DNA of 64,000 nucleotides. Source: Clostridia bacterium (lineage in GTDB: Bacteria; Bacillota; Clostridia; Christensenellales; CAG-1252). Under the pieces are notes generated by a model, which was not told the origin of the DNA, did not search any database, and saw only the letters and a program-made list of their open reading frames with translations. Made by a program: the position numbers and the translations under genes. This document shows, piece after piece, positions 12,348 through 27,014 of the stretch. Position 1 is the first letter of the stretch. Each line of letters opens with the position of its first letter. The stretch is from contig JAIKVL010000033.1 of NCBI GenBank assembly GCA_024685775.1, positions 7,908-71,907 of the forward strand, in the 5' to 3' direction.

Positions 12348-15300
12348 TTACAGCGCGCGGATGCTTTCGACCGGAGATTTCTTCGCCGCGAAGAAGACGG
12401 GAAGGAATGTCGCGAGAACGGAAATGAAGATCGAGACTCCGAAGATCAAAGCGACGTTGATCGGTCCGAAATTCAAAAGCTGCATCGAGACCGCATCGAC
12501 CAGCGACCGATTCAGGAAGAAGCAGACGATAAACGATCCGACCGACGCGAGAATAAAGCAAATAAACGCGATGATGAACGCTTCCGCGTAGAAAATCTTG
12601 AAGACGTCCGATCCTCTTGCGCCGACCGCGCGCAGGATCCCGATATCTTTGCGCTTCGCGGAGATCGAAACCGCAATGAAGTTCAAAAGGAACAGCGCGG
12701 CGATCGCACCGACGACCAATCCGACGATCAGGAAAATTTTCTGCAACATTTTGATCATGGAAAGGAACATTTCGAGTTGCTCGTAGACTCTGCTCTCGAC
12801 GCCGTACTTCACGTTGTCGCCCCCTTTCAGCGCAGAAGTGATCTGCGCTTGCGAATTATCCGTCGGAGAGAAAATCAGATTGTACTTCGCATCGTCCGGG
12901 CGAACGTAATCGGTTTTATACGACATACTCCAATGATAGCCGCCGTCTTGATTCATCGTGGCGTGCGCTTCCATCCAAGACTCGGAAATCGCATAATAAG
13001 CGCCGAGGTTTGCGACCGAAGAATCAAAGTAACCCGCGATTTCAAGCGTTCCCGAGGCGTTATACTTGTCGCGGAACCAAAGCGTTCGTACGAAAGAATC
13101 TACGTCGCACGCAAAAACTTTATCGATCTCATCGACGCTTTTCCCTTTTCCCGCGAGGAACGCGTCGACGGCCGCTTTGTACTCTCTGAATTCATCTTCT
13201 CCGCAACTCCGGTTTTTGAGGGAATCGATAACGTTCCACACGATATCGTTATCAAAGATGGATTCGTTAACGTTCCAATAGTATTCAACGATCAAGCCGT
13301 ATACTGTTTGGAGATAATCCGTCTTGAAATCCGAAGAAACGACGGCTTCGATCGCAGCCCAATCCGCGGCGGTCGGCTCGATCGCGTTTTCCGACATATT
13401 CACATAATATTGAATTTTTTCGTAGGCAGCCGAGAAATTTTCCGTAGAATACCCGTTATTCCGAAGAATGGACGCGGCGTCGTACAAATATTTTCTGTAC
13501 ATAAGCTTTTGAAACCAAGTTTGAACGTATCCGACGTACGGCGCGGGATCGGTCGAATTCCAAAAAGCGTTCGTCAAATCGTCGTTGAAAAGCGCGCGCG
13601 CCTCCGGATCGAAAAGCGCATTATCTCGGCAGCGATTGAAATAGTTTGCGAGCGCGTTTTTCAACATCTCGCGATACGTTGAAAAATTCAGATATATTTT
13701 TCCGTCTTCGAAAGAGGGCTCCGCGATCACGGTTCCGTTCGGCGCATAAAAAACGATTTCGCTTTTATGATTGTTGCAAAAACGATCGGTAAAGATCGTT
13801 TCGCCTGCCCACTGTTCGAGGTCTTGATCGTTTCTTTCATTCGAAAATCGGATGCTTTTGAAATAGCGCCCGTCGAGGTTTCTCATATTACTGTTTTTCG
13901 GCATCCGATCCTTATAGGCGTCGTAAAAAGAAGCGCCGACGAAAATCACGGTATTGAAACTGTTTCTCAAATAATCTTCAAAAGAACGTTTCAAATTTTC
14001 TCGGTTTTCCTCGCTGATGGAATTCGGCGAGGTTTTCAAAACGTCGAACTTGAACGGAATCGATTCGACTGAGACGATGCCTTTGATCGTAAACTTGGAA
14101 TCTTCGCCTCGGAAAACATCCCTGCCGCCCGACAAGCGGATGGTTTTCCCGATCAGATCGGAGACGGAATTCACGTTCGCGCCTTCGGTTTCCGCAAAGA
14201 GTTCGGCGAGATACTCGGGAAGCGCGATCTCGTTTTTCGCCGAAGGATATTCCCCGATCAGGCGATACCCGACGGAAGAAAGATACTCCGCGCCGCAATC
14301 GGAAAAACCGAGAGCCGTCGTAACGGAATAAAACGACCGATGGTCCGAACCGACGGAAACGGGAATATAGCTATCTCCCGAAACGAGATCCAAAGTATAG
14401 CCGGAACGCTCGTAATACGAGTAGTCCGAAAAGTCGAAAACGCCCGCGAATTTGAGCCCGTCTTTGCTCTTCGATCCGACTTCGGACGCGCCGAATAACG
14501 TCGTAACGTAGTCCGTGTCGCGATCCATGACTTCTTCATTCCCGGAAGAATCCATGCGAATTTGTTCACACATCACCTTATAGGATTTGCTCAGCGTGAG
14601 CATAGGATAATTCGCTTCTTTCAGCGCTTTGGAAATCGAATAGTTCGAATCGTACAGCATAAAGGTGGAAGCGACACCGAACATGACGAACGCCGCGACC
14701 GATAAAAGGATCGTAAAGATCAAGCGGATCGGCTTGCTTTTGAGACCGCTCGCGCCCATCTTGATCGCGTGCCCCATCGGCAGGCGCGACTTGATAAACT
14801 TCGTCTCTTTTCCGTTATACGCTTTCGTTTCTACGGCGTCGGTCTGCTTAAAGGATTCTTTCGAGCCGTCGTCATTGATCTTGCAGGCGCGCTTTACGTC
14901 TTTGAGCTCGCGCTCCCCTGCCGCGATGATCGCTTCGCCGCCTTTCTTTTTCAAAACTTCCGCGATCTTTTTAATATCCGCATCCGTGATCGCCGCGCCG
15001 TCCTTGACACGGATCGTGTCGTCCATAACGACGACGTTCTCGTCGGAATTTTCGGGTTCGATATAGGTTTTGCTGACGTCCGAAAGGATCTTTCCGTCTT
15101 TCAGTTCGATGATCCTGTCGCCGTAAAACTCCGCGAACTCCCGATCGTGAGAAACGACGATGACGAGTTTGGTTTCGGACAGCTTCTTCAAAGTGTCCAA
15201 GACCTGCTTTCCCGTGTTGGAATCGAGCGCGCCCGTCGGTTCGTCCGCCATAATGATCTCGGGCTGTTTGATAAGAGCGCGCGCGATCGCGACCCTCTGC

Positions 15301-15737
15301 TTCTGACCGCCGGACAAGGTGTTCGGTTTTCTCTTCCCGTACCCCTTCAAATCCACCTGCTCCAAAAGATCGGCGACCGCCTTTTTATCGTTCGGTTTGT
15401 TTTGAAGTTGCAGAGCGAGCGCGATATTCTGCTCGATCGTAAACTCGTTCAAAATGTTGTACTCTTGGAAGACGAATCCGATAAAGGTATTCCGATAGCT
15501 GTCGAAATCCGCTCCGGAGAATTCCTTACTGCTTCGCCCTTTCACGAGGATCTCGCCGCCGTCCGGCTTATCCAAGCCGCCCGCGACGTTCAAAAGCGTC
15601 GATTTACCCGAACCGCTCTTACCGAGCAAAAAGACCATTCCTTTTTCGGGGAACGTTACGGAAACGTCGTCGAGCGCGCGCACTTCGACGCCGCCCTTTC
15701 CTGCGTAGACTTTGGTCAGGTTTTTAACCTCTAACAT
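12348..15737 (-). CDS. Fused ABC transporter: N-terminal ATPase plus FtsX/MacB-type permease with a very large extracytoplasmic domain
   Basis: This is a 1129-aa ORF. It has Walker A GKSGSGKST, signature LSGGQKQR and Walker B IIMADEPT. A TM lies near aa 335-360, about 640 aa of soluble region follows, and three C-terminal TMs are typical of FtsX (…GILRAVGARGSDVFKIF…). Confidence 0.85.
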   Translation of the reverse strand: MLEVKNLTKVYAGKGGVEVRALDDVSVTFPEKGMVFLLGKSGSGKSTLLNVAGGLDKPDGGEILVKGRSSKEFSGADFDSYRNTFIGFVFQEYNILNEFTIEQNIALALQLQNKPNDKKAVADLLEQVDLKGYGKRKPNTLSGGQKQRVAIARALIKQPEIIMADEPTGALDSNTGKQVLDTLKKLSETKLVIVVSHDREFAEFYGDRIIELKDGKILSDVSKTYIEPENSDENVVVMDDTIRVKDGAAITDADIKKIAEVLKKKGGEAIIAAGERELKDVKRACKINDDGSKESFKQTDAVETKAYNGKETKFIKSRLPMGHAIKMGASGLKSKPIRLIFTILLSVAAFVMFGVASTFMLYDSNYSISKALKEANYPMLTLSKSYKVMCEQIRMDSSGNEEVMDRDTDYVTTLFGASEVGSKSKDGLKFAGVFDFSDYSYYERSGYTLDLVSGDSYIPVSVGSDHRSFYSVTTALGFSDCGAEYLSSVGYRLIGEYPSAKNEIALPEYLAELFAETEGANVNSVSDLIGKTIRLSGGRDVFRGEDSKFTIKGIVSVESIPFKFDVLKTSPNSISEENRENLKRSFEDYLRNSFNTVIFVGASFYDAYKDRMPKNSNMRNLDGRYFKSIRFSNERNDQDLEQWAGETIFTDRFCNNHKSEIVFYAPNGTVIAEPSFEDGKIYLNFSTYREMLKNALANYFNRCRDNALFDPEARALFNDDLTNAFWNSTDPAPYVGYVQTWFQKLMYRKYLYDAASILRNNGYSTENFSAAYEKIQYYVNMSENAIEPTAADWAAIEAVVSSDFKTDYLQTVYGLIVEYYWNVNESIFDNDIVWNVIDSLKNRSCGEDEFREYKAAVDAFLAGKGKSVDEIDKVFACDVDSFVRTLWFRDKYNASGTLEIAGYFDSSVANLGAYYAISESWMEAHATMNQDGGYHWSMSYKTDYVRPDDAKYNLIFSPTDNSQAQITSALKGGDNVKYGVESRVYEQLEMFLSMIKMLQKIFLIVGLVVGAIAALFLLNFIAVSISAKRKDIGILRAVGARGSDVFKIFYAEAFIIAFICFILASVGSFIVCFFLNRSLVDAVSMQLLNFGPINVALIFGVSIFISVLATFLPVFFAAKKSPVESIRAL

Positions 15738-15765: not shown

Positions 15766-15794
15766 ATTATATATGATTCTATTCCTTATATCAA
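15766..15794 (-). promoter_or_regulatory. Sigma-70-type promoter for the ABC gene
   Basis: On the minus strand it reads TTGATA (15794-15789), a 17 nt spacer, then TATAAT (15771-15766). The site lies 29 nt upstream of ATG 15737. Confidence 0.6.
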
Positions 15795-15804
15795 TAGGAA
15801 AAAT

Positions 15805-15829
15805 AAAAAAAAGGGAAGAACCCTTCCCC
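15805..15829 (-). terminator. Intrinsic terminator closing the six-gene McrB-like/SipW operon
   Basis: On the minus strand it reads GGGAAG-GGTT-CTTCCC followed by T8. It begins 7 nt after the stop codon at 15836-15838. Confidence 0.8.
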
Positions 15830-15835
15830 TTTTCG

Positions 15836-16588
15836 TTACTTTCTGCGTTTTCTCTGCGCTTCTTCCAGGCGCTTTTTGCTCGCGATATACTCCTCGACGG
15901 CTTTTCTTTTGATCTCGTCCTCTCTCTGCTTGATGAGTTCTTCGGGAGTGAGCTGCTCTTTCTTCAATTCCGCGTCGTCCTTCATCTTGCAAGCGCGCAC
16001 GAAATTGATGATTTGGATGACGAGCAAGCAAAAGAGCGGGACGAAGACGATCAATCCGAAGCCGAGCTTACTGCGGAACGCATTGTAGACGAAGGTCATG
16101 ACGACGGACGTCCGAACGTACTTCCCGATGACGTCGGTATACTCGATCGGTTTATCCGCGATCCCGTAATTCGCGTCGCCGCAGGTCGTCAGTTTCCCGT
16201 CCTCGACGCCTTCGCTTATGATCCTATGCGTAACGATCTTGCCCGAGAGCTCGCCTTTCCCGACGAAGGTAACGATATCTCCCTTTTTGAGTTCGTTTTC
16301 GGAACCCACTTTTTTAACGATAATGACGTCGCCGACGTCCAAAGTCGGGCGCATGGATCCCGAAATAACGGTATAGACCCCGTAACCGAAGAGATTCGGA
16401 CGCTTCGCCGTCTTCACCTGAATGAGCGTAAAGATCACGAACCCGAGCAAAAGAAGCAGAAACACCGTTACGACGGTGCTTACGATCTTTTGGGCGACGG
16501 ACGGCTTTTTTCCGTTCGTTTCTTGTTTTTTAACGCTTTCTTTTTCTTTCATAGTCGCGTAAAGAGACGGCGAACCGTCTCTTCTCAA
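15836..16588 (-). CDS. SipW-type (ER/archaeal-type) signal peptidase I, copy 2, with a charged C-terminal tail
   Basis: It has a TM (VVTVFLLLLLGFVIFTLI), catalytic-region motifs ISGSMRPTLDVGDVIIV, VTHRII and CGDANYGIAD, a second TM, and a K/E-rich tail containing EIKRKAVEEYI. The start is ambiguous: TTG 16588 lies 3 nt after the upstream stop, and ATG 16552 is the alternative. Confidence 0.8.
   Translation of the reverse strand: MRRDGSPSLYATMKEKESVKKQETNGKKPSVAQKIVSTVVTVFLLLLLGFVIFTLIQVKTAKRPNLFGYGVYTVISGSMRPTLDVGDVIIVKKVGSENELKKGDIVTFVGKGELSGKIVTHRIISEGVEDGKLTTCGDANYGIADKPIEYTDVIGKYVRTSVVMTFVYNAFRSKLGFGLIVFVPLFCLLVIQIINFVRACKMKDDAELKKEQLTPEELIKQREDEIKRKAVEEYIASKKRLEEAQRKRRK
16563..16582 (-). 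other. Perfect 8-bp hairpin at the junction between the McrC-like gene and sipW copy 2
   Basis: AGAGACGG-(4 nt loop)-CCGTCTCT lies between the stop at 16592 and ATG 16552. No clear U-tract follows. Confidence 0.5.
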
Positions 16589-16591
16589 TGC

Positions 16592-19228
16592 TTATTTCTT
16601 TTTATCTTTCTTTTTGTCTTTCTCTTTTTTATCCCCGATCACGTCGTGAACGTTCTGCGGCGTTATGGAAAGAGGCGTGTAAGAACGCGGGATAAACGTG
16701 CGGGCGCGGCCGCCGTCCGAGGGATTCGGAGTGACTTCCGAGATCTTCGGCTCTTCTCTCTCGATCGAGTTTTCTTCAAACGAACGCGCATCTTCGGAAG
16801 GCGACGTCGGCGCAAACGGTTTCGGCGCCAAAATATCCTTCGCGGACGGCGTGTAGGGGTTGGGCGCGGCGGGCTTCTTCGATTTGGGCGAGGTCGGAGC
16901 GAAGCTGGTGGCGCCTTGCGCCTTGTTCTCCTCTTCGAGTCTCTTCAACTTCTCTTTGAATTCCGCCTTCTCTTGCGCTTTCTTCGCCTTTTCCTCTTCC
17001 TTCTTCGCTCTCGCTTCTTCTTTCTTTCTGAGCTTGAAGGCTTTTCTCTCCTCTTTCGAAGTCGCGACGTTCTCGCGATCTTCCTCGGGGGTCAGCTTCA
17101 TCGCGGACACGTCCTTGTTGATGAGCTTCTCGTCCACGTTCAATTCGTCGATAAAGCTCCAATCGTCCTCCGCGGTCGGGAGCTCTTCTTCCTCTTCTTC
17201 TTGGGGCGCTTCTTCGGGTTCGGGCTCGGGCTCTTCCTCGGGAACGAAGTCGAAGACGACCTCTTCCGCGTTCTGACCGAGCTCCGTATAGCCGATATCG
17301 CCGACTTCGGGCGTAGGCGCGACCGCCTCTTCCTTCTCTTTTTCAAGCTCTTCCGGCGTAAGTTTATCGTTCAGAATCTCGTTGATCTGTTCCTTTCCGT
17401 AGGTCAGGACGTTGACGTCTTCCGCCTCCATCGCGTCGGCGCGCTCTTCTTCGGTCGCGGTCACGCTGTCGAAGTTAATGAGCTGCGCAAGCTCTTCCAT
17501 ATCGATAATCGCCTGCTTTTGCTGGGCTTCCATATCGGCGTAGTGCGTGCTGATGAGCTCCTGCATCGTGTGCTCTTGCTCGCGGCGCATTTCCTCGATC
17601 CTGCGGATCTCTTTTTTACGAAGCAATAACAGCGCTTCGCCTTCGATCGGAGCGATATAGGTCATCGTCTTTTCGCGTTCGAGCTGCTCGGCGAGAAGTT
17701 GCTTTTCGGTCGCCATACGCTCTTCTTCCGAGCGTTGGATCGCAAGCAGTCTTTCCTTTTCCGCGGCGAGGCGCTTCTCCATTTCCGCTTCTTCTTTGCA
17801 GAGGCGCAAACGCATGAGTCTTTCTTCCGCGCGAACGATGCGATCGTGCATCTCTTTCTTTTCGCGTTTGATGCGCTCTTGTTCTTCCTTCTGCGCGAGC
17901 TTCATCGCCTTTTCCGCTTCTTTCTCCGCGCGGATACGCTCTCTTTCTTCGGCTTTGCGGCGTTTTTCTGCGTCCTTCGCGTCCTTCTCCGCCTGCCTGA
18001 GCGCTTCGAGTTTAAGCTCGGCTTCCTCTTTGAGCTGTTGCTTCAACAAGGCTTTTTGCCGCGCGCTGTCTTCCTTGGCGGTGTTGATCTTATACTGGCG
18101 AATGACGCGATCCAAAGCCGCGTTCATCTTGCGAACGTCGTCCATTGGGACTTCGCGCTCGCCCGGAACCGTCGTGTACAAACGGCGGATCTCGTGAAGA
18201 TCCATATGGAGCTGCGGGAAATCGTCCGGGACGAAATCGTCGATATTCTTGGTCAGGTATTCGTTCTCGACGTTCTTTTCTTTTTCGAGATCTTTCTCTT
18301 CCACGAGCCCGCCTTCGGCTTTCGCCGCCATCGACTCGATGATAAGAGTGTTCAAATAAATAAGGTCGCGATACTTTTCGGAAACGGAAGGCGAAAGATC
18401 GCGCGTCTCCGTAACCGTTTCGACTTCGAAACCGATCTTGTTATACGATTCGATGAACTGCCAAAGGACCAGAGCTTTTTTGAAGTTCGGGTCTTTCAAG
18501 ATGACGTTCGTACGGGTGATCGGCGGGCGGACCAGCGCGCAACTGACCATTTCCTTCGCGAACGGGCTCGCAAGGAAGCTCGAAACGATGCTGTTGATCC
18601 TTTCCACGCGTTGAACCAACGTTCGGTTGTCGTCCGCGCCCATTAAGTTTTCCACCGGCATATTCGCGGTGGTGGACATTGTGTAGCTGATCGAATTATC
18701 ATTTTTCAGTCCGAAATCGGAAGTAACGTTGACGACGATCTGGTCGCTGTTCGCGTTCGCCTGCTTGATCAAATTAAAGCGGCGGGTAATGAAATCCTTC
18801 GTCTTCAAAAGGAGGGTATAGATAAAACGGTTCTCGTAAATCTCGTACGACTCTTCTTTCGACGTGTTCAGGATTTTACTCGGAATGACCATTCCGTCTT
18901 TGGTAACGGAAGAAATGTAGTTCGTGTGCTGCGCAAGGTGCTTGACGGACTCGACGGAAATACTCCTCGCGAGAGAGATATCGACGATATCTTCTTCGAC
19001 GACGATGAACTTACGCGGGTTACGAACGATCGTGTCGAGCGCGACGATACAATCTTCGAGGGTGTCGATCCAACTCTCGTCGAAGATCTGCTTTTGGAAG
19101 CGCTGCGACACTTGAAAACTATTCTTACCCTGCGCGATATAATCCGAATAATCGGAATAAAAGTCCTCCTGTTTGAGGAGCGTACTCAGGTAATATAGAT
19201 ATTCTTCGTACCTTTTCTTGTCTGCCAT
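16592..19228 (-). CDS. McrC/DUF2357-like N-domain protein with a ~200-aa coiled coil and a Pro/Lys-rich tail; no nuclease motif seen
   Basis: This is an 878-aa ORF starting 20 nt after the McrB-like gene. The N-domain (aa 1-305) has SYEIYENRFIYTLLL and ITRTNVILKDPNFKKALVLWQFI, which resemble the ENRF and YxxLxxW segments of McrC-N/DUF2357 proteins. That judgement is by eye only. Residues 385-580 form an E/K/R heptad-like coiled coil. The rest is acidic, then P/K-rich, and ends in KKEKDKKKDKKK. I found no D...(D/E)xK nuclease core. Confidence 0.55.
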   Translation of the reverse strand: MADKKRYEEYLYYLSTLLKQEDFYSDYSDYIAQGKNSFQVSQRFQKQIFDESWIDTLEDCIVALDTIVRNPRKFIVVEEDIVDISLARSISVESVKHLAQHTNYISSVTKDGMVIPSKILNTSKEESYEIYENRFIYTLLLKTKDFITRRFNLIKQANANSDQIVVNVTSDFGLKNDNSISYTMSTTANMPVENLMGADDNRTLVQRVERINSIVSSFLASPFAKEMVSCALVRPPITRTNVILKDPNFKKALVLWQFIESYNKIGFEVETVTETRDLSPSVSEKYRDLIYLNTLIIESMAAKAEGGLVEEKDLEKEKNVENEYLTKNIDDFVPDDFPQLHMDLHEIRRLYTTVPGEREVPMDDVRKMNAALDRVIRQYKINTAKEDSARQKALLKQQLKEEAELKLEALRQAEKDAKDAEKRRKAEERERIRAEKEAEKAMKLAQKEEQERIKREKKEMHDRIVRAEERLMRLRLCKEEAEMEKRLAAEKERLLAIQRSEEERMATEKQLLAEQLEREKTMTYIAPIEGEALLLLRKKEIRRIEEMRREQEHTMQELISTHYADMEAQQKQAIIDMEELAQLINFDSVTATEEERADAMEAEDVNVLTYGKEQINEILNDKLTPEELEKEKEEAVAPTPEVGDIGYTELGQNAEEVVFDFVPEEEPEPEPEEAPQEEEEEELPTAEDDWSFIDELNVDEKLINKDVSAMKLTPEEDRENVATSKEERKAFKLRKKEEARAKKEEEKAKKAQEKAEFKEKLKRLEEENKAQGATSFAPTSPKSKKPAAPNPYTPSAKDILAPKPFAPTSPSEDARSFEENSIEREEPKISEVTPNPSDGGRARTFIPRSYTPLSITPQNVHDVIGDKKEKDKKKDKKK

Positions 19229-19248: not shown

Positions 19249-20829
19249 TTAGAAGAGTTTCTTCAACCTTTCGAGGTATTCCTTACATTCGGTCATGTTT
19301 TCCTCTCCGAAGTGATCGGAAAGGTATTGGATATAGTCGTCAACCTCGTCGCGGATGTAGGCAAGGTTCAAGGATTCGAATTTACGAAGGATCTTGTTAC
19401 AGAGGACGTAGTCCAAGCCGTCGATCTCCGTTCCGCCGCAAGCGACGTACACGGGGACGAATTCTCTTAATTGCTTAACGATACGGTTACCGAACGCCAA
19501 GCGGAAATGCTCGATAACGTAATCATCCATCTCTTCGAATTTTCTCAGGTTCTCTTCGCTGACCTTATGCTCTTCCTGCGCTTTTGCAAACAGGGATTCG
19601 AGATACTTATAAGACAGCGGCATCATATTCGTCAAAGGCGCGTCGAAAGGCTTCGCCTTGCTGTTGATGTTGATCGGCATACCACGGTCGTAAACCTTAT
19701 CGGAGATCGCGAACGTCGAGTCATCGTTGTTCGCCGTTCCGACGAACCACATGTTTTCCGGCAAACGGAAACGACCTTTTTCAACGTGCTTCGGGTCGGA
19801 AGGCCAACCGCTCGGAACGAGGTCGACGATCCATTGATCACGCGACGGCATTTCGAGAATGGACAACATTTCCGCGAAGTAGTACTCGACACGCGCGATG
19901 TTCATTTCGTCGAGGACGGTCAGATACATATCTTCGTTATAGGTCGCGTCGTACATCGCTTTCAGCGTTTCCGTTTCGTTGAACCTCTTGGTAAATTCGT
20001 TGAAGTATCCGAAGATTTCGGTTCTATCACGCCAAGACGGCTGAACGGAAGCGATCGTCGTCGGGTTGTCGATAAAGTGACCGATACATTCGGGAAGTGA
20101 GGTTTTACCGGTACCGGATATACCTTGCAGGATGATGAGCCTCGTCGTTGCAAGACTTGCGAAGAACAATCGAATGATCTTGGGTTCGTAATAAAGCTTA
20201 CGCCACGGTCTGTCGGGGTTATTCGCCGCGTAATTTCGGAAGGTGTCGCAAAGCTCCGAAAGCGTAAAATCCTTTCGGAATTCGGTATGACGCTGCGAGC
20301 CTTCTTCCGCGTATTGGTTATCGACTTCCGTCAGCTTGTAGAAACGGCTCTCGCCTTCCTTTTTCGCGCTGGACGTGTCTTCGCCTTCGTTTCCTTCCAA
20401 AACGTCGTAGCCTTGATAGCCGATCTTCAAACCGAGGATGCGGTCTTTTTCTTTCGTCAATTTAACGATCTGACCTTTTAAGTTTCCGATCTCGTCCACG
20501 AGGTCTTGATTCAAAACCCTCGAACCGAAGAGTCTTTTGAAGAAACGGACGAGGAAGTAAGCGCCGACGACGACGATCGCAAGAAGAGCGAGAACGACGA
20601 GGATAATGATCACCCAAGCGCCGATCCATTGCCCGGTACTCATCTGCTTCATCGCTTGGAATTTTTCTACGACCGCAATATAGCTGTCTATCGCGAACAA
20701 TTGACGGAACGCGCCGAAGAAACCGCCGTACCAATTAAAACCGGAAATACCGTGCGGTTGCGTATAGAAAAAGCCAAGAAATCCAAAGAAGAATACTTGC
20801 AAAAATTCTTTTATAAAATCAGTAAACAT
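19249..20829 (-). CDS. Membrane-anchored McrB-type AAA+ (AAA_5) GTPase
   Basis: This is a 526-aa ORF with a TM helix WIGAWVIIILVVLALLAIVVVGAYFLVRFF (aa 67-95) and a short coiled coil. Walker A is ILQGISGTGKTS. SVQPSWRDRTEIFGYFNEF compares with McrB vqFHpsYsYeDFveG. Walker B and following, LTVLDEMNIARVEYYFAEMLSILE, compares with lIiDEiNRanlskifGEl..llE. RLPENMWFVGTANNDDSTFAISDKVYDRG compares with f.iP.Nl.iiGTmNtaDrs...lD.AlrRRF and includes the NxxD GTP motif. Confidence 0.75.
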   Translation of the reverse strand: MFTDFIKEFLQVFFFGFLGFFYTQPHGISGFNWYGGFFGAFRQLFAIDSYIAVVEKFQAMKQMSTGQWIGAWVIIILVVLALLAIVVVGAYFLVRFFKRLFGSRVLNQDLVDEIGNLKGQIVKLTKEKDRILGLKIGYQGYDVLEGNEGEDTSSAKKEGESRFYKLTEVDNQYAEEGSQRHTEFRKDFTLSELCDTFRNYAANNPDRPWRKLYYEPKIIRLFFASLATTRLIILQGISGTGKTSLPECIGHFIDNPTTIASVQPSWRDRTEIFGYFNEFTKRFNETETLKAMYDATYNEDMYLTVLDEMNIARVEYYFAEMLSILEMPSRDQWIVDLVPSGWPSDPKHVEKGRFRLPENMWFVGTANNDDSTFAISDKVYDRGMPININSKAKPFDAPLTNMMPLSYKYLESLFAKAQEEHKVSEENLRKFEEMDDYVIEHFRLAFGNRIVKQLREFVPVYVACGGTEIDGLDYVLCNKILRKFESLNLAYIRDEVDDYIQYLSDHFGEENMTECKEYLERLKKLF

Positions 20830-20906: not shown

Positions 20907-21806
20907 TTACGCTTTTGTCTCTTCTCCTTTTTGATCGGAAGCGCCGCCATCTCCCGCAGCGGGGCTGAGCCCCTGACTCTTCAAATACTCTTCGATCGCC
21001 TTGCGCTTGATCGCTTCTTCGTCGATCGATGCGAGAGCCGCCTGCTTCGCGCTTTCCGCCGCCGCCGCTTTCGCCTTCTTCATCTTGTTTTCGACGACGA
21101 TCTGCGCGACCAAATAAATATTATAGATCAGCAACAATCCGAGAGGAATGATGATGACGTAGATGAAATGGTATCCGTCGCGGATCCAAGTCAACGCCGA
21201 ACCGAGTCCGTTGATATGGAACGCATAAACGGCGAGGATATCGCCCGCGAGCTTATCCGCTTCGTCCGGGAGCGGGTTGGCGTCGCCCTGCGTCCTGTAC
21301 TTCTTGACGCCGTCGACGTCTTTGACTTCGATAATTCTGTGCGTTACGAGAATGACTTGACGGCTGTTGTCTTCAAGCATCTTGAACGTCACGATGTCGC
21401 CGACTTTCAGATCGTTCCCGCCTTTTTTCGGGCTCGTCGCGAAAACGAGCGCGCCTTCGGGGAAACTGTCCTTTTTATCCCCGTCCATTGATCCCGTCAA
21501 AACGGGAAGTAACTTCAACCCGACGGGAGAGACCTTGTCGCCCGATTGCGGGTTCAGCATAACGACCAAACAAATGACGATCGCGAGGACGACGAAAGCG
21601 ATCTGCACGGCGAGAACAACCGCGTTCGCGATCCTTTTGCCTTTGCTCATCGGTTTCTTTTCCCTTTCGTCGATTTTTTTCGCCGCAGATTCGACTGCGG
21701 GAGCCGCCTCGACCGTTTCCGCATTTTCTTCGACCGCTTCGGTGACGGGCGTCGCCGCGGTTTCTTCCGTTTCGGTTTCGTTACTCAATTTCTTGTCTTT
21801 TTCCAT
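20907..21806 (-). CDS. SipW-type (ER/archaeal-type) signal peptidase I, copy 1, with an acidic N-extension and a charged C-terminal tail
   Basis: ATG 21806 has GAGGAG 11 nt upstream; the ORF track starts at 21941 inside the previous gene. It has a TM (AVVLAVQIAFVVLAIVICLVVML), the motifs VLTGSM, VGDIVTF, VTHRII and QGDANPLPDE, a second TM, and a tail containing AIKRKAIEEYL. Confidence 0.8.
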   Translation of the reverse strand: MEKDKKLSNETETEETAATPVTEAVEENAETVEAAPAVESAAKKIDEREKKPMSKGKRIANAVVLAVQIAFVVLAIVICLVVMLNPQSGDKVSPVGLKLLPVLTGSMDGDKKDSFPEGALVFATSPKKGGNDLKVGDIVTFKMLEDNSRQVILVTHRIIEVKDVDGVKKYRTQGDANPLPDEADKLAGDILAVYAFHINGLGSALTWIRDGYHFIYVIIIPLGLLLIYNIYLVAQIVVENKMKKAKAAAAESAKQAALASIDEEAIKRKAIEEYLKSQGLSPAAGDGGASDQKGEETKA

Positions 21807-21823: not shown

Positions 21824-22777
21824 TTAGCTTTGGGTGACGAATTCGACCGCAAGTTTGACTTGCCCGCCGAGAATACCTCTTTCGCTGTCTACCGTGCTGG
21901 ACGCGTCGCCGATACACTGCGGATCCTCGCCTTCCAGCCAAATAATGATCGTGTACTTAATGATCTCGCCGGGGTTTAAGGGGAAGAGTTCGCTGTTCAG
22001 GACGTAGCCGCCGCCTTGGAAAGGCTTCGCAAGCCAGACGCCGTCTTCCGCGATCGTTCCTTCCTCAAACGTGAATCCGTTGAAAACGTCGATCGTCTGC
22101 GGTTTGTAATTCTTCCCGGGGACGACTTCTTCCGGAATCACGTTTCCTCCTTCGTCGAGAAGGTTTTTGCCTCTTTGATCGGTCTGCGGCGCGGAGTAGA
22201 CCGAGATCGTTCCGTAGTTCTCGTCCGTCAGATCGGAATCCTTGATGACGAGGACGCGGATCGCTTTATCCATATTCCGCATCGCGCGTTCGATCGAGAT
22301 CATTTCCCGATAGCCGACCGCGCCGGTTCCGCTGTTTTTCAAATAGAACGACGTCGCGATAAAGAAATCCTGCGTGCCTTCGCCCTTGTAGGGACCGTTC
22401 GACTCGTAAATATCTTTAATCTTTCCGTCGATATAGTTGCACAAAGTACTGTTGTCCATATTCTTCGGCGCGGCGACGTCCAAAACGCTGGTCGGGTTCG
22501 TAAACTCGAAGTCCTTGGAAAGAGAGAGCCACGAAGTACCCGTCTGCGAAACGGTAACGCGGAAGTTGTTGTTATCCACGAAACGCATAATCGCGTACGT
22601 TATGCCCGCGAGAAGGGTGACGATAAGCAAGAAGAGCAGAAGAATGATAATGACCGCTCTTCTGCGCGCTTGCCGACGGACGCGTTTGTTTTTGATAACG
22701 TACTCGTTCTCCGCCGCCAATTGCTCCTGAATCAGTTGATCGGGAGTTTTTTCAACGTCACTCTTTGTTTTCGCCAT
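21824..22777 (-). CDS. TasA/camelysin-like (Peptidase_M73-like) secreted beta-rich protein with a signal-anchor
   Basis: This is a 317-aa ORF. A 40-aa charged N-extension precedes the TM/signal segment AVIIILLLFLLIVTLLAGITYAIMRF, which compares with the SipW-type signal ..GGTyAyF. FYLKNSGTGAVGYREMISIE compares with TasA F.F.N.GSL. The C-terminal WLEGEDPQC...GGQVKLAVEFVTQ compares with TasA yQGNSIKLQFSFEATQ. The assignment is by motif only. Confidence 0.5.
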   Translation of the reverse strand: MAKTKSDVEKTPDQLIQEQLAAENEYVIKNKRVRRQARRRAVIIILLLFLLIVTLLAGITYAIMRFVDNNNFRVTVSQTGTSWLSLSKDFEFTNPTSVLDVAAPKNMDNSTLCNYIDGKIKDIYESNGPYKGEGTQDFFIATSFYLKNSGTGAVGYREMISIERAMRNMDKAIRVLVIKDSDLTDENYGTISVYSAPQTDQRGKNLLDEGGNVIPEEVVPGKNYKPQTIDVFNGFTFEEGTIAEDGVWLAKPFQGGGYVLNSELFPLNPGEIIKYTIIIWLEGEDPQCIGDASSTVDSERGILGGQVKLAVEFVTQS

Positions 22778-25571
22778 TGTTCTTTACCTTAGGCACCGGC
22801 TTTATGTTCGTCAGCGCCAAATTGATAATTCTCATCGGGCGCGCGACCGCATCGCCCTGTATGACCTTTACGCCGTGATCGAGAAGGATCCTCGCCTCCT
22901 CTTTATGCTCGCAGTTGATGGACGTCGTTACGATATTCTGAACGTCCGCATACCCCGTTATCATATCGAGGTGAGAAAGCCGCTTGGAGCTGTCGCCGCT
23001 GTAATAGCGGGCGTCCAAACGGAGATAATCGAATTCGTACTCGGTCAAGACGCGCATACTCGCGCTTTCCGCGTTGTCGATCATAATGAGCGCGCCTTGC
23101 GTTTTCAAAGTGTTGATCGCGCTGATGCCGACGTAGCCGACCGCTTCGAGCATCGCGCAGTCGAACGCGAGAATCAGGTTCTTATGCTCGGTCTGCATTT
23201 TGTCGACGAGCTTCGTCAAGGTTTCCTGTTTCAGCAAAAGACGGCAACTGATCTTGACCGCGAAACGAATATCCGGGTTCTCGTTGCAATCCTTTACGAC
23301 GTTGTCGAGCGCGATATAATTCAATTCCTCGATACGGGAGCTGCCCTCCGCGATCGCGAAATACTCCTGCGGGATCATCTTGCCGAGGAATTTATCGTTC
23401 AGGACCTGATACACGTTCAGATACTGGACGACGCCTTCCTCATTGATCGCCGCGTCGTAAAAGAAGACGATCGGAGTCGCGAGCGCCACGCCCGCATTCA
23501 GGGTCTTGGCTTTGCTTCTTTGCAGTTCGAGAAGGTCGCGCGCGGTGAGACCGTCGTCCGGCTTATACCCCTTCGGGACGCCCCAAGCGTCCGTCGCGCC
23601 CATCTGCTCGCGAAGATGCTCGGTCAATTCGCCGTAAACGTCGGCGTACTCTTCCCCTTCGCGTTTTACGAACGGTTTATCCTCTTCGCCTTTGAAGACG
23701 GCGTTTTTGATATACGGGTATTTCTCCGCGAACGGAACGTACGCATAGCGCTTGTTGCGTTCGAGCCCGTTTTCCTTCATCAACTCCGTGATGAGTTTGA
23801 CGGCTGCGTCGCGCTCCTTTTCGTTCTCGATCTTCAAAAGGAGCTTCGTGCCTTCGTAACCGATCTGATCCGAAGCGTCCTTATGCTTATACTTCCGCGT
23901 CGGATATTTTTTCGGATCGAGCGCAAGATAGAGCCTGACGATCTCCGCGACGATCGTAATACGCGCGATCAGCTTTTTGCCCGACTTGAAATTGTCGTTC
24001 TTGACCGTCATTTCGGATTTGACCGTCTTGTAGGACAAAAGCTCGTTTTTGATCTTGCTGTATAAGATCTTGATCGTGTTCGGGCACTGGTGGATCTTGT
24101 TTTCGAGCGTCAGAGGAAGGACGCTTAACGGCTGCGCTTCTTCTTGGACGATTTGGATCTCCTGCTCCGGCTCTTCGGAAAGACCCGCGGCTTTTCTTTC
24201 TTCCGCGCGCTTTTCCTTGATGAGGTTTTGCTCGTCCTTCTCTTCGAGAGAAAGATATTTGCCTTTCGTGTCCAGAACCGCGTCGCTTCTTCTCGGGAAG
24301 TTCGGGAGATAATCCACCGTTTCCGGATTTTCAAGGCGGCTTATATTGAATTTGCCCATCATCAGGGCGAGAAGCTCGATCACGATCGCGAATTCGTCGT
24401 CGTTACGGACGCGAAGCAACATTCTCGCGTCGTCGAAATCGACTTCGGAACGATCCGCCTGCTTATAGCGATCCACGTCGAATTCCACGGGATCGAGCGC
24501 GAAATAGATGCGGGTGAAACCGGCGACGGACAAACGCGCCAAAACCTGCTTCCCGCGACGGAAAACCTCGGTCGCCGTCTGCATTTCCGCCTTGACGCCA
24601 TCATACGCCAAGATCTCGTTTTTGAGCTTGTTGTAATACCTGCGCTCGCGCGTGTCGGCGAGGGCGAGTTTATTTTCGAGGCTGCGCTTCAAAACGGCTT
24701 TGCCGTCTTCGTTCAAAAGCTCGCCTCGCTCGTTATACTTCGGCTCCGCTTTCTTCGCCTCTTCCTTTTCCTGCTCTTGCTTTTCGAGGTACTCCGTTCC
24801 ATCTTCGGCTAAGGTCTCGGCGTTATCCGCGATCTGATCCAAGAGCTCTTGCCTTTCTTCGAAGTTGCCGCCGTAGACGAAGTCGTCCATCGCGCCTTCC
24901 GCCATGAAGGCTTGCATATAGTCGTCGTCCATAACGAAGGCCTCGCCTTCACCGTTTCCTTCCGCGGGAGTCGAAGACGTTTCCTGCGACGCCTCGTTCG
25001 ACGATTCCGCAGACTCGGACTCAGTCGGTTCTTCCTGCGCGCTCATCGCGGGCGCGACGGCAAAAACGACGTCCGAAGGCTCGGCGGACATAATCCCGTC
25101 GTCCATCGCCTGCACTTCGGCGAGAAGCGCGGCTTCTTCTTCGGGATCGAGCGGCGCATCCTGCGACGTCGCGGATTCTTCCGCGGCTTCGGATCCGTCA
25201 ACCGAACTTTCCGCTTCTTCGGGAGCGGGCTCTTCCGTCTCGGTTTGCGGCTCGGTGGGACTTTCCGGCGCCGTCTCTTCGGCGGAGGCTTCGGATCCGA
25301 GATCTTCCGATGCGGGATCGGGGTTCTCGGTCGGTTCCGTTTCTTCTTCGGGGACGAAGGGCGTTACGGCAGTCGCGTCTTCACTGACGGGACGAAAAGA
25401 ATTCGCCCGCTTGGGCGCTTCCGTTTCTTCGGTTAACGCTTTTTGATTCTCGGCGTCGAATTCTTCTCCGTACAAAACGGAGGAATCCTCTTTACGCTTC
25501 TTCTTATCAGTCCGCCATTTGAATGCCAAAGCAACCTCCCGACCAGTGTCAACAACCCAAAAGAATCGCAA
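22758..25571 (-). CDS. Large cytoplasmic protein: acidic IDR, two ~105-aa internal repeats, and a C-terminal degenerate EAL-like domain
   Basis: This is a 937-aa ORF. EAL-like landmarks at aa 698-915 are IPQEYFAIAEGSSRIEELNYIAL (matching P.eFi..AE..g.I), AVKIS (for VNlS), LAFDCAM (for lEiTE), LIMIDNAESAS (for alDDFGtG), YLRLD (for lKiD), VTTSINCE (for vAEGVE) and VIQGDAVARPM (for QGy.f.rP). The start is uncertain. It is either TTG 25571 or TTG 25529, which lies 5 nt after GGGAGG. Confidence 0.7.
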   Translation of the reverse strand: MRFFWVVDTGREVALAFKWRTDKKKRKEDSSVLYGEEFDAENQKALTEETEAPKRANSFRPVSEDATAVTPFVPEEETEPTENPDPASEDLGSEASAEETAPESPTEPQTETEEPAPEEAESSVDGSEAAEESATSQDAPLDPEEEAALLAEVQAMDDGIMSAEPSDVVFAVAPAMSAQEEPTESESAESSNEASQETSSTPAEGNGEGEAFVMDDDYMQAFMAEGAMDDFVYGGNFEERQELLDQIADNAETLAEDGTEYLEKQEQEKEEAKKAEPKYNERGELLNEDGKAVLKRSLENKLALADTRERRYYNKLKNEILAYDGVKAEMQTATEVFRRGKQVLARLSVAGFTRIYFALDPVEFDVDRYKQADRSEVDFDDARMLLRVRNDDEFAIVIELLALMMGKFNISRLENPETVDYLPNFPRRSDAVLDTKGKYLSLEEKDEQNLIKEKRAEERKAAGLSEEPEQEIQIVQEEAQPLSVLPLTLENKIHQCPNTIKILYSKIKNELLSYKTVKSEMTVKNDNFKSGKKLIARITIVAEIVRLYLALDPKKYPTRKYKHKDASDQIGYEGTKLLLKIENEKERDAAVKLITELMKENGLERNKRYAYVPFAEKYPYIKNAVFKGEEDKPFVKREGEEYADVYGELTEHLREQMGATDAWGVPKGYKPDDGLTARDLLELQRSKAKTLNAGVALATPIVFFYDAAINEEGVVQYLNVYQVLNDKFLGKMIPQEYFAIAEGSSRIEELNYIALDNVVKDCNENPDIRFAVKISCRLLLKQETLTKLVDKMQTEHKNLILAFDCAMLEAVGYVGISAINTLKTQGALIMIDNAESASMRVLTEYEFDYLRLDARYYSGDSSKRLSHLDMITGYADVQNIVTTSINCEHKEEARILLDHGVKVIQGDAVARPMRIINLALTNIKPVPKVKNNGENKE

Positions 25572-25718
25572 AACACCGATTACTTATCGGAGATGCGCTC
25601 TTTCGTTTATTTTTATTCGCTTCGAGATCGGGAAATTCTACTCACTTTTCATTGAAAACCGCGCAAATATTCGCATTTTTCAAAATTTGAAGCAAGGCAT
25701 ACCCTCTCCCGTTTAATC

Positions 25719-25727
25719 ATTATACCA
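25719..25727 (-). promoter_or_regulatory. Extended -10 promoter element (TGGTATAAT) upstream of the six-gene operon
   Basis: The reverse complement of 25719-25727 reads TGGTATAAT. It would give a leader of roughly 150-190 nt. The -35 region is weak. Confidence 0.45.
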
Positions 25728-25767: not shown

Positions 25768-25879
25768 GTTGCTAATTCCTGTAAAAATCCAGCTTTTTCG
25801 GGACATTTCGACTTATGTTAGAGCAAATTTACAAGAATGTATAAATGCGGTTACAAAATGACGGAAAAACTCACCCCTA

Positions 25880-25908
25880 TTGAATTTTCTTCTTTTATTT
25901 GGTATAAT
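25880..25908 (+). promoter_or_regulatory. Sigma-70-type promoter for the 25933 membrane-protein gene
   Basis: It reads TTGAAT (25880-25885), a 17 nt spacer, then TATAAT (25903-25908). The TGG preceding the -10 makes it an extended -10. Confidence 0.6.
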
Positions 25909-25932
25909 ATTTTTCACAAAGGAGGTACGTTT

Positions 25933-26424
25933 ATGGACAATCCCATCGGAGAAAAAGAAGCGCTCGCCGCCGAAGCGGAAACGAAAAACGCGGAAGTTGT
26001 CGCAGATCCGATCGAAGAGCCGACCCCGCAAAATCTTCTTTCCGAAAACGCGCTTTGCGCCGTTAAAAAGGGACCGAAAAAAGCAAGTTACGTCTTTTTC
26101 GTGCTTGCCGTTTTGACCTTTATTCCGTTCATTTTTCTGACGATGCCGTTCTTGGGCGCCTTCTTTGACAGCTCGCCCGAGGACCTCGGCGAAGCGCTCG
26201 GAAAAGTCTTCGGGCTGCTCTTCGTGATCATCTTTATGGCCATCACGGGGATCCCGAATTTCATCTTTTCTTTGCTCTCCACGATCTTTTTCGGGACGGC
26301 GATCGGAAAGACGGATCCCAAGCGCAAGGTGAAAACCATCGTCTTTTTCGCGATCTCGCTCGCGCTTTTGATCGCCGTCGTTACGATCGCGCTGATCAGT
26401 TTCATCGTCATAAAAAGGAACTGA
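25933..26424 (+). CDS. Four-TM membrane protein, unknown function
   Basis: ATG 25933 is preceded by AAGGAGGT. The translation is MDNPIGEKEALAAEAETKNAE... followed by four hydrophobic helices. The ORF track starts earlier, at 25837. Confidence 0.65.
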   Translation: MDNPIGEKEALAAEAETKNAEVVADPIEEPTPQNLLSENALCAVKKGPKKASYVFFVLAVLTFIPFIFLTMPFLGAFFDSSPEDLGEALGKVFGLLFVIIFMAITGIPNFIFSLLSTIFFGTAIGKTDPKRKVKTIVFFAISLALLIAVVTIALISFIVIKRN

Positions 26425-26451
26425 ACCGGTCGATCCTTCCAAACACAGCAT

Positions 26452-26489
26452 AAAAAAATCGCTCGCAATATGCGAGCGATTTTTCTTTG
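26452..26489. terminator. Bidirectional intrinsic terminator (end of the ribosomal alpha operon and of the 25933 gene)
   Basis: It has a 10-bp perfect stem ATCGCTCGCA-ATA-TGCGAGCGAT, flanked by A7 on the left and T-rich sequence on the right. Confidence 0.85.
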
Positions 26490-26504
26490 TTAAACGTTTT
26501 CCGA

Positions 26505-27014
26505 TCAAAGCATCTCGATGATCGCCATTTCCGCGGCGTCGCCTTTTCTTTGACCGAGCCTAAGGATGCGGGTATATCCGCCGCCTTGGGTCTGTTTGTC
26601 GTTGCGCTCTTTATACTTCGGAGCGTACTCGTTGAAGATCTTCTCGATCAAAGGATGATTGATGTCCTTCGTCCTCGCAGCGTACTTGCTCTTGCTCTCT
26701 TTCTCGCCCTTCTTCTCTTGAATATCGTAAAGCTCAGCCATCAAACGACGCCTTGCCGCGAGCTTTTTCGGACCGTCGTTCGTAAATTTGACGGACACTT
26801 TCTCGTCTTTGAGGTTGACTTTTTCTTTGACAACTTCAACGGTGTCTTGATAGGTGTTGATAGCGAGAGTGAGAAGTTTTTCAGCCATACGACTTACCTC
26901 TTTGGCGCGGTCGAAGGTGATCTCGATCTTTCCGTACCACAAAAGGTCGGAAACTTCGTTCTTCAACATCGCCATACGTTGGTCTGTCGGTCTTCCTAAT
27001 TTTCTTTGATTCAT
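26505..27014 (-). CDS. rplQ: 50S ribosomal protein L17 (with an internal insertion)
   Basis: MNQRKLGRPTDQRMAMLKN...GGYTRILRLGQRKGDAAEMAIIE. It is the last gene of the alpha operon. Confidence 0.95.
   Translation of the reverse strand: MNQRKLGRPTDQRMAMLKNEVSDLLWYGKIEITFDRAKEVSRMAEKLLTLAINTYQDTVEVVKEKVNLKDEKVSVKFTNDGPKKLAARRRLMAELYDIQEKKGEKESKSKYAARTKDINHPLIEKIFNEYAPKYKERNDKQTQGGGYTRILRLGQRKGDAAEMAIIEML

Follow-up and report, generated by a model that had tools for sequence, protein, structure and literature searches.

A degenerate EAL-like protein as a candidate non-catalytic subunit of a CoCoPALM-type gene cluster in Christensenellales

The locus and the protein

The window analyzed here is a 64,000-nucleotide stretch from a Clostridia bacterium of the order Christensenellales (GenBank assembly GCA_024685775.1, contig JAIKVL010000033.1, positions 7,908 to 71,907), and its subject is a minus-strand gene encoding a 923-residue protein in which a long acidic region and two copies of an unannotated module precede a degenerate EAL-like domain. 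The gene is the first of a six-gene unit whose remaining members read, from their sequences, as a CoCoPALM-type McrBC-like/signal-peptidase cluster, an identity that escaped the preliminary description of this DNA. Our best overall explanation, to which we assign a probability of about 0.6, is that the protein acts as a non-catalytic cytoplasmic accessory subunit, either an adaptor or a regulator, of this cluster.

The position of the gene at the head of the operon, already proposed in the preliminary description, is borne out by a divergent upstream gene, downstream genes that overlap or abut, and terminators on both sides, one behind rplQ and the other after the sixth gene. The open reading frame (ORF) itself is present at 22758..25571. 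Translation most probably begins at codon 15, the TTG at 25529, because a ribosome-binding site (GGGAGG) lies upstream of it, because the product is 100% identical to a public 923-residue protein (P0001, titled 'MAG: EAL domain-containing protein [Clostridia bacterium]', MAG denoting a metagenome-assembled genome), and because homologues keep the N-terminal MAFKWR, which in the family alignment extends to MAFKWR..KKK. Residues are numbered here from this codon; the nucleotide coordinates given previously were right, and the residue numbers were 14 too high.

The layout of the protein (Table 1) was derived from composition statistics and a full-length AlphaFold2 model built from 59 homologues, in which both modules and the C-terminal domain reach a predicted local distance difference test score (pLDDT) of about 90. 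The protein is cytoplasmic. Its intrinsically disordered region (IDR), previously described as acidic and some 180 residues long and retained here as such, consists of 29% aspartate and glutamate and 2% lysine and arginine, has an isoelectric point (pI) of 4.05, and differs in both length and sequence among homologues. A further acidic linker separates the two modules.

Table 1. Features of the EAL-like gene, its product and its operon (window coordinates).
Feature	Position	Strand	Description
CDS (coding sequence) of EAL-like protein	22758..25529	-	923 aa (amino acids) plus stop; start TTG 25529, not TTG 25571
Basic N-terminal segment	25470..25529	-	aa 1-20, pI 10; MAFKWRTDKKKRKEDSSVLY
Acidic IDR	24933..25469	-	aa 21-199 (179 aa); pLDDT <50
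Acidic/aromatic motif, then long helix	24705..24932	-	aa 200-275; FVMDDDYM.AFM.EGAMDD..YG; conserved; from alignment and AlphaFold2 model
Module 1	24270..24698	-	aa 278-420; near-neutral diverged copy, pI 5.7; YdhG/YjbR/DUF5655-like
Module 2	23700..24125	-	aa 469-610; basic copy, pI 9.65; helix-helix-four strands-strand-helix
Conserved linker	23478..23699	-	aa 611-684; YVPFAEKYPY and EEY.D.YGELT motifs; helix into EAL-like domain
Degenerate EAL-like TIM-barrel domain	22824..23477	-	aa 685-902
Gene 2	21824..22777	-	317 aa; basic cytoplasmic tail, one transmembrane helix, exported domain ending IIIWLEGEDPQC
Gene 3, SipW-type (archaeal-type) signal peptidase I	20907..21806	-	C-terminal transmembrane helix and tail; TIGR02228, 66.6 bits versus 51.85
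Gene 4, membrane-anchored coiled-coil McrB-like AAA+ GTPase/ATPase	19249..20829	-	526 aa; N-terminal transmembrane helices
Gene 5, McrC N-terminal (DUF2357)-like	16592..19228	-	878 aa; long coiled coil, acidic/basic IDR
Gene 6, second SipW-type signal peptidase I	15836..16588	-	TIGR02228, 79.2 bits versus 51.85
Operon-closing terminator-like hairpin	15807..15834	-	12-bp stem and T run
Candidate extended -10 element TGgTATAAT	25719..25727	-	about 190 nt upstream of start codon; inferred from the sequence

The C-terminal domain is EAL-related and stripped of canonical residues

The Pfam EAL profile (PF00563) matches the C-terminal region, scoring 70 bits (E 2.6e-19; cut-off 31.3), with residues 710-912 of the ORF aligned to positions 23-236 of the 236-position profile, and the distant relatives P0057 and P0060 score 56 bits. 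A Foldseek search with the AlphaFold2 model returned about 100 solved EAL structures at template modelling (TM) scores, normalized to the target, of 0.7-0.8 and 12-19% identity, with matches to MorA, BifA, MucR, FimX, TBD1265 and RocR spanning 240-250 columns (0.70-0.80). The model thus points to a true EAL fold, rather than another TIM-barrel family as the preliminary description had allowed, and proper alignment leaves the catalytic columns substituted.

Substitutions were read from three alignments: a phmmer alignment to Bd1971, alignments of the family profile to PA3825 and others, and a MAFFT alignment that included E. coli PdeL, PdeH and YdiV from the K-12 genome. The list of ten canonical EAL residues follows the summary in the YdiV paper (PMC3510510) and general knowledge. 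In the MAFFT alignment seven of the ten are replaced and three kept. The EAL motif itself reads QQVLNDKFLGKM in place of EALxRW, so that ExLxR becomes N-V-Y-Q-V: its metal-binding glutamate is N705, with N, T or D at this position across the family, and its arginine is V709, with V or I in every family member (pattern N/T/D-V/I-Q-Q-V/I). Further along, the asparagine of NxS is K759 (K-I-S), the first glutamate of ExxE is A788 (A-F-D-C, within AFDCA), the second aspartate of DD is N819, the catalytic lysine of KxD is R837 (R-L-D, with K.D.SF becoming R.D.RYY), and the general-base glutamate of EGVE is I871, or S870 under a one-residue shift. Loop 6, canonically DFG(T/A)GYSS, reads IDN--AESAS, a two-residue deletion that removes the FG. 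The kept residues are E728 in the P..F..AE motif, D818 as the first aspartate of DD, and Q891 in QG. The preliminary description had listed the same replacements (YLNVYQV, AVKIS, LAFDCAM, IDNAES, RLD and TTSINCE) and the same retained segments (IPQEYFAIAE and QG), and its degenerate EAL domain with substituted metal and catalytic positions holds in profile, fold and all three alignments.

On these alignments the domain appears to have lost its catalytic residues and its motif for binding cyclic diguanylate (c-di-GMP), ExLxR, alike. Since metal and catalytic positions are substituted, it is not expected to be a phosphodiesterase and is predicted to be unable to hydrolyze c-di-GMP.

The losses are unlike pseudogene decay, because conservation is highest in the EAL-like domain (42-53% identity in members whose modules share 25-33%) and because the replaced motifs are themselves invariant. 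These motifs, QQVLNDKF.GK, F..AE.S.RI..LN, (A/S)FD, D(N/G).E, R.D.R(Y/F) and (Q/E)G, contain the invariant polar residues N711, D712, K713, K717, D790, D818, E821, R837, D839 and R841 and align to the positions of the canonical EAL active-site motifs, which, from what is known of the fold, we take to lie where strands end, on the face of the barrel that usually holds the ligand. The pattern suggests a remodelled functional surface on an EAL-like barrel.

Comparison with known inactive EAL proteins

The preliminary description called the substitution pattern typical of inactive receptors such as LapD, FimX and YkuI, and this claim is not borne out. Those proteins do resemble the present one in using an inactive EAL domain as the regulatory module of a cell-surface system, in operon-level coupling to the regulated machine, and in keeping QG and P..F..AE. 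However, LapD, FimX and YkuI all retain the DDFG loop, and FimX and YkuI, like LapD, keep the arginine of ExLxR. In LapD this residue (R450, in KVL..R450) lies at the center of the c-di-GMP site (PMC3032553), and ExLxR has been described as determinative for c-di-GMP binding in inactive EALs (PMC10333796). The present protein has N-V-Y-Q-V where LapD keeps this arginine, DN with a two-residue deletion in place of DDFG, and, unlike those receptors, no GGDEF, HAMP or PAS partner domain. As those receptors keep ExLxR, we do not place it among them.

The closer parallel is YdiV, which has lost eight of the ten canonical residues and neither hydrolyzes nor binds c-di-GMP (PMC3510510). YdiV/RflP and STM1697 share with the present protein the EAL fold, the loss of most of the ten residues (8/10 in YdiV, 7/10 here) and the absence of the ExLxR arginine; by this criterion of residue loss the domain would group functionally with YdiV-type 'EAL-like' proteins, with the expectation that it acts by protein-protein contact and not by c-di-GMP turnover. 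There is no specific kinship with YdiV in sequence, architecture or taxon. YdiV is a stand-alone gamma-proteobacterial protein of about 237 residues that titrates FlhD4C2, in contrast to a 923-residue Christensenellales protein that also has an IDR and two further domains and whose gene belongs to a McrBC-like/signal-peptidase operon; the substituted motifs differ, and YdiV is not among the 50 best Foldseek matches, which are led by active EALs such as Bd1971 and MorA.

The duplicated module

Modules 1 and 2 share 31% identity over 142 residues (BLASTP, E 2e-25). The paralogy reported in the preliminary description is therefore sound, and its limits of about 105 residues were too narrow. Its failure to assign the modules to a family is also matched here, as no Pfam or NCBIfam model fits the module region at E <= 0.1-1. 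Module 1 exists as a separate copy only in close homologues (≥75% identity); the aligned distant members of about 550 residues carry one degenerate module, and one of the more distant relatives, P0057, gives a weak second match to the module 1 region (E 1e-9).

A search with module 2 against 1.84 billion cluster representatives (50% identity clusters) recovered 2,408 proteins at E <= 1e-3, 816 of them at E <= 1e-10. Module proteins are 296-2,828 residues long and usually hold 2-7 tandem copies, and several combine N-terminal membrane segments with acidic linkers. Among 348 module instances, 91% have a pI above 8, and the module probably binds a polyanion. DUF2357, the McrC-like domain, is found on 6 of the 40 best module proteins, P0070 being one such fusion, so that the module is joined to a McrC-like protein in other Clostridia. 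As a separate observation, a uL15-like C-terminal domain (PF00828) occurs on another count of 6 of the 40; many module proteins, P0065, P0066, P0080 and P0104 among them, end in a domain of about 70 residues that matches C-terminal uL15 at up to E 3e-15.

Modelled alone, the module gives a pLDDT of 92.5 and a predicted TM score of 0.84, with the order helix-helix-four strands-strand-helix. Its structural neighbors are YjbR (2fki) and a YdhG-like protein (9t2w), both at TM 0.61, probability 0.99 and E 0.06-0.07, with B. subtilis YdhG/DUF1801 (2oc6) and, at E 4.7e-4, a DUF5655 protein from phage also among them. The Foldseek E-values are weak against the PDB (0.06-0.3) and reach 3e-5 and 5e-4 against viral models. 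Thus YdhG/DUF1801, YjbR and DUF5655 resemble the module in fold, whereas their sequence models do not match it, and the module differs from them in its usual arrangement as 2-7 tandem copies within long Clostridia proteins with acidic linkers. On the strength of the models we file it as a putative new sequence family in the YdhG/YjbR/DUF5655 fold group. A phage origin was considered and rejected, a PHROG search having given no match.

The downstream genes and their conserved linkage

CoCoPALM systems were named by Bell et al. (2024), who link them to pilus assembly and defer their analysis to 'a separate, forthcoming publication' (PMC11090510). The published description comprises a McrB-like GTPase with an N-terminal transmembrane/coiled-coil (FtsB-like) region, a McrC-N/DUF2357 protein with coiled coils, and neighbors of the signal-peptidase family (PMC11090510), and gene 4, gene 5 and the two SipW-like peptidases of the window correspond to it. 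Neither the EAL-like first gene nor the YdhG/YjbR-like module is mentioned in the text or two supplements of that paper (PMC11090510), and our literature search found no other paper that mentions CoCoPALM systems.

Gene 2 overlaps the EAL-like gene by 20 nucleotides and is a conserved partner in all CoCoPALM loci examined. The start of gene 3 is uncertain, as its ORF extends to 21941. Gene 4 matches the McrB AAA+ domain (E 1.8e-6) with Walker A, Walker B and the MN..D region aligned; Walker A (GISGTGKT) and Walker B (VLDEMNIA) are intact, the GTPase signature A-N-N-D-D-S can be read as NxD or NxxD, and a heptad-like segment accompanies the transmembrane helices in the sequence. The gene 5 protein has no direct Pfam match and no detected nuclease domain; it aligns with the DUF2357 protein P0070 at 37% identity (E 8e-43), and DUF2357 scores 29.4 bits on P0070 against a cut-off of 23.3 and 37 bits on a homologue from locus L054.

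To gauge the linkage, one genome per species was scanned across 185,579 GTDB species, which yielded 36 loci, every one in a MAG of rumen, gut or digester origin that belongs to uncultured Christensenellales or Clostridia. In every scanned locus with enough flanking sequence, with one exception (L030), the five other genes of the unit accompany the EAL-like gene and share its strand. Gene order is permuted in the most distant members, which place the EAL-like gene directly upstream of that for the GTPase, and in the close clade the cluster has a fixed place beside rpoA-rplQ. Across Christensenellales, the GTPase keeps 73-95% identity where the EAL-like protein keeps 35-50%. This linkage supports a functional tie between the EAL-like protein and the downstream genes.

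CoCoPALM clusters were also sampled independently through the GTPase (at least 447 metagenome matches, of which 80 were kept). The sampled core consists of one or more exported proteins, SipW, the GTPase and McrC-N, and a second SipW is present in some clusters. At least six sequence lineages have an EAL gene at the head of the cluster (loci L044/45, L047/49, L050, L053/54/57, L071/72/74/75/77 and L081). These head genes all exceed the Pfam EAL threshold, at 42-160 bits, all lack the catalytic residues, and share (I/L/M)ND(K/R) directly after the EAL motif, which ordinary EALs do not have; they form a gradient in which the family in the window is the most degenerate. In a large human-gut CoCoPALM clade no EAL gene lies within 10 kb upstream, so the EAL subunit is lineage-specific and not universal. 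That clade (L080-L122), for its part, is near-clonal, with a GTPase 53% identical to that of the window and two gene-2-like exported proteins.

In a Clostridia contig, locus L043 (ERZ28633829 scaffold_445, 105-22146), the first gene of the cluster encodes a 245-residue degenerate EAL protein, and it is the DUF2357 protein that bears the module. This arrangement is a Rosetta-stone argument for joint action of the EAL-like protein, the module and the McrC-like protein.

Several exported paralogues that combine a signal end of the 'STATFAWF' form with W(F/Y)DG at the C terminus are encoded in many CoCoPALM loci, and L043 has three with an 'ASFAWF' signal. As judged from sequence, they are likely filament or matrix subunits processed by the SipW-like peptidases, and are at least plausible substrates. 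Examples, with (S/A)T(A/S)(T/S)(F/Y)AW(F/Y) and (V/I).(V/A)W(F/Y)DG, lie at L001 5103-9990, L002 4524-6119 and L043 3643-7042. The tapA-sipW-tasA operon of Bacillus and sipW-bsaA of Clostridium perfringens likewise encode a SipW-type peptidase with its exported substrates, and the T.A.F-type signal end of the related CoCoPALM paralogues (STATFAWF) resembles the SipW-cognate signal. However, no Pfam or NCBIfam model, TasA/camelysin and SipW-cognate signal models included, matches the exported proteins here, and we know of no McrB/McrC-like pair or EAL-like gene in the matrix-fibre operons of either Bacillus or C. perfringens.

Proposed function and alternative explanations

We consider it very probable that the protein is a dedicated non-catalytic CoCoPALM subunit; that it does not sense c-di-GMP we rate slightly short of an even chance. 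As a working mechanism, the remodelled EAL pocket would, as in YdiV/RflP, serve as a docking surface or hold some ligand different from canonical Mg-c-di-GMP, the basic modules would bind a polyanionic partner, candidates being nucleic acid and acidic tails within the system's own proteins, and the acidic IDR would act as a tether or autoinhibitor. The translationally coupled gene-2 protein offers a candidate contact, its cytoplasmic tail being basic and conserved. Together these parts could link a cytoplasmic signal with the export or assembly, driven by the GTPase, of surface proteins that SipW processes, the assembly tuning the membrane GTPase/McrC-like motor and thereby export or polymerization. 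The preliminary description had suggested a nucleotide-sensing or scaffold protein controlling the downstream machine. The tie to that machine is upheld by the 36 species-level genomes and many metagenome contigs; nucleotide sensing is the less likely half, because both E and R of ExLxR are gone, three of the ten residues are left, and the domain stands near the non-binding YdiV.

A more far-reaching version, which we put forward tentatively and regard as doubtful, is that a distinct EAL-derived clade, with (I/L/M)ND(K/R) replacing RW.hP, constitutes the dedicated cytoplasmic control subunit of CoCoPALM systems, and that the Christensenellales branch dropped c-di-GMP for a new ligand or for docking and became fused to a basic YjbR/DUF5655-like domain that links it to the McrC-like subunit, possibly via nucleic acid. 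As part of the same version, CoCoPALM systems would be GTPase-driven, McrBC-derived export or assembly machines for SipW-processed surface filaments.

Several points weigh against the proposal of a non-catalytic accessory subunit. The assignment of ExLxR rests on the MAFFT alignment, the exact spacing to P..F..AE and the Pfam envelope, and HMMER comparisons of the N-terminal half of the domain with single PDB sequences found no alignment; in support of the assignment, the spacing is gap-free, with 11 residues from R to P followed by F/Y..AE as in PdeL. The retained QG, first aspartate of DD and P..F..AE may leave room for an unconventional c-di-GMP site. Head genes of the L075/L077/L081 type, which lack N, K and Q, keep E...R and IDDFG, and around the L043 cluster lie three genes with GGDEF (one GGDEF-EAL, one with dCache-HAMP) and, apart from the head gene, another that is EAL-only. 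What CoCoPALM systems do is itself a prediction, and the exported cargo of the window operon is uncertain because no 'TFAWF'-type subunit genes were found in the 64-kb window.

C-di-GMP classically acts on surface-filament and biofilm machines, and this side of filament biology would fit a LapD/FimX-type receptor, in which the degenerate EAL domain binds c-di-GMP without hydrolysis and relays its level to the export or assembly machine; the retained motifs, the more nearly canonical relatives (L071 reaches 160 bits) and the GGDEF neighbors of L043 favor this alternative. It nevertheless seems unlikely. The element held to be determinative for binding (PMC10333796) is absent in every member of the window's family, loop-6 DDFGTG carries its two-residue deletion, N, K and both metal-binding glutamates are replaced, and YdiV, with similar losses, does not bind (PMC3510510). 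Moreover, L043 is the sole case among 123: no GGDEF gene lies within 10 kb in the 122 other related loci, nor is one among the 25 Pfam families listed, of 36 in all, for 31 window ORFs that lie beyond the operon and the bulk of the ribosomal-protein region. That the domain is instead an enzyme or sensor for a different small molecule, such as another cyclic or linear nucleotide, bound through the new invariant polar residues, we judge quite improbable. The family-specific conservation at positions aligned to the canonical active-site motifs is strong, D790, D818 and D839 with E821 could still hold a metal, and the YdiV authors report a retained groove that holds phosphate and glycerol and suggest other small ligands (PMC3510510); a protein-protein interface explains the conservation equally well. 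To our knowledge, a neo-functionalized EAL enzyme is without precedent, which also counts against it. An active c-di-GMP phosphodiesterase with misaligned catalytic residues would accommodate the above-threshold Pfam match and is hardly credible, and we rejected it: three independent, concordant alignments (to Bd1971, PA3825 and PdeL/PdeH) agree that N, ExxE, the second D, K and the general-base E are lost, and the glutamate of EAL is N, T or D across the family.

The McrB/McrC ancestry raises the alternative of anti-phage defence, with the cluster as a McrBC-type restriction derivative and the EAL-like/module protein as its sensor or specificity subunit, whose basic modules would recognize foreign nucleic acid. 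The modules have a YjbR-like fold, named DNA-binding by NCBI, gene 4 matches the PADLOC candidate PDC-M26A (E 2.6e-37) and module 2 the candidate PDC-S18 (E 3e-6). We consider defence highly unlikely, since the McrC-like protein shows no nuclease domain, the PHROG search was negative, the association with signal peptidases and exported proteins is obligatory, and the CoCoPALM authors point to pilus assembly (PMC11090510). The fixed place beside rpoA-rplQ in the close clade also argues against it, as does the 73-95% identity of the AAA protein across Christensenellales, which suggests vertical, housekeeping-like conservation. The PADLOC matches are to 'candidate' systems only, and no paper mentioning those candidates was found. 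Independently of this question, some PADLOC 'phage defence candidate' models, PDC-M26A and PDC-S18, may in fact describe CoCoPALM-type components.

Degenerate EAL proteins are known as a kind, and the gene is auto-annotated as EAL-containing; what is new is the motif set with the loss of ExLxR, the fusion to a widespread unannotated domain, and the recurrence as first gene of CoCoPALM operons. If the accessory-subunit explanation holds, CoCoPALM systems, which are abundant in gut Clostridia, gain a conserved cytoplasmic input subunit, and since such subunits span near-canonical to fully degenerate EALs, c-di-GMP control and the timing of its loss become directly testable. The module defines a large unannotated domain family reproducibly linked to McrC-like proteins and uL15-like C-terminal domains. 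The automatic label 'EAL domain-containing protein' also needs correction, as the gene would otherwise be counted as a phosphodiesterase in c-di-GMP censuses of Christensenellales.

Neighboring genes and regulatory elements

Directly downstream of the operon, 12348-15737 (minus strand) encodes a 1,129-residue ABC ATPase-FtsX permease fusion (MacB-like) with its own promoter-like site at 15766-15794 (11/12). A homologous gene (51-56% identity) is also downstream in loci L005 and L011, and it may be loosely associated with the cluster. Beyond it, 11395-12237 (minus strand) encodes a putative 280-residue lipoprotein with an LAAC lipobox-like signal, a long acidic Pro/Glu-rich linker and no family match.

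The candidate promoter of the EAL-like gene has a weak -35 region and was not listed by the consensus scan. Within the leader of about 190 nucleotides, a short terminator-like hairpin at 25576-25590 (minus strand; CCGATAAGTAATCGG) with a T-rich tail could be an attenuator. A riboswitch, for example of the c-di-GMP-I/II classes, was rejected, as the divergent leader of about 400 bp has no credible Rfam match.

On the plus strand, divergent from the EAL-like gene, 25933-26424 holds a small membrane-protein gene of about 163 residues from an ATG behind GGAGG, with a promoter-like site nearby at 25880-25908 (TTGAAT-17-TATAAT with TG); a 231-residue minus-strand ORF at 25813-26508 was rejected as a gene because it is the shadow of this one. 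Still further upstream, the ribosomal-protein/rpoA cluster comes to its end (SecY, Adk, Map, S13, S11, S4, RpoA, L17). A perfect 14-bp palindromic hairpin with flanking A and T runs directly follows rplQ (L17) at 26454-26484 and, from its sequence, looks like a bidirectional terminator between that cluster and the small divergent gene.

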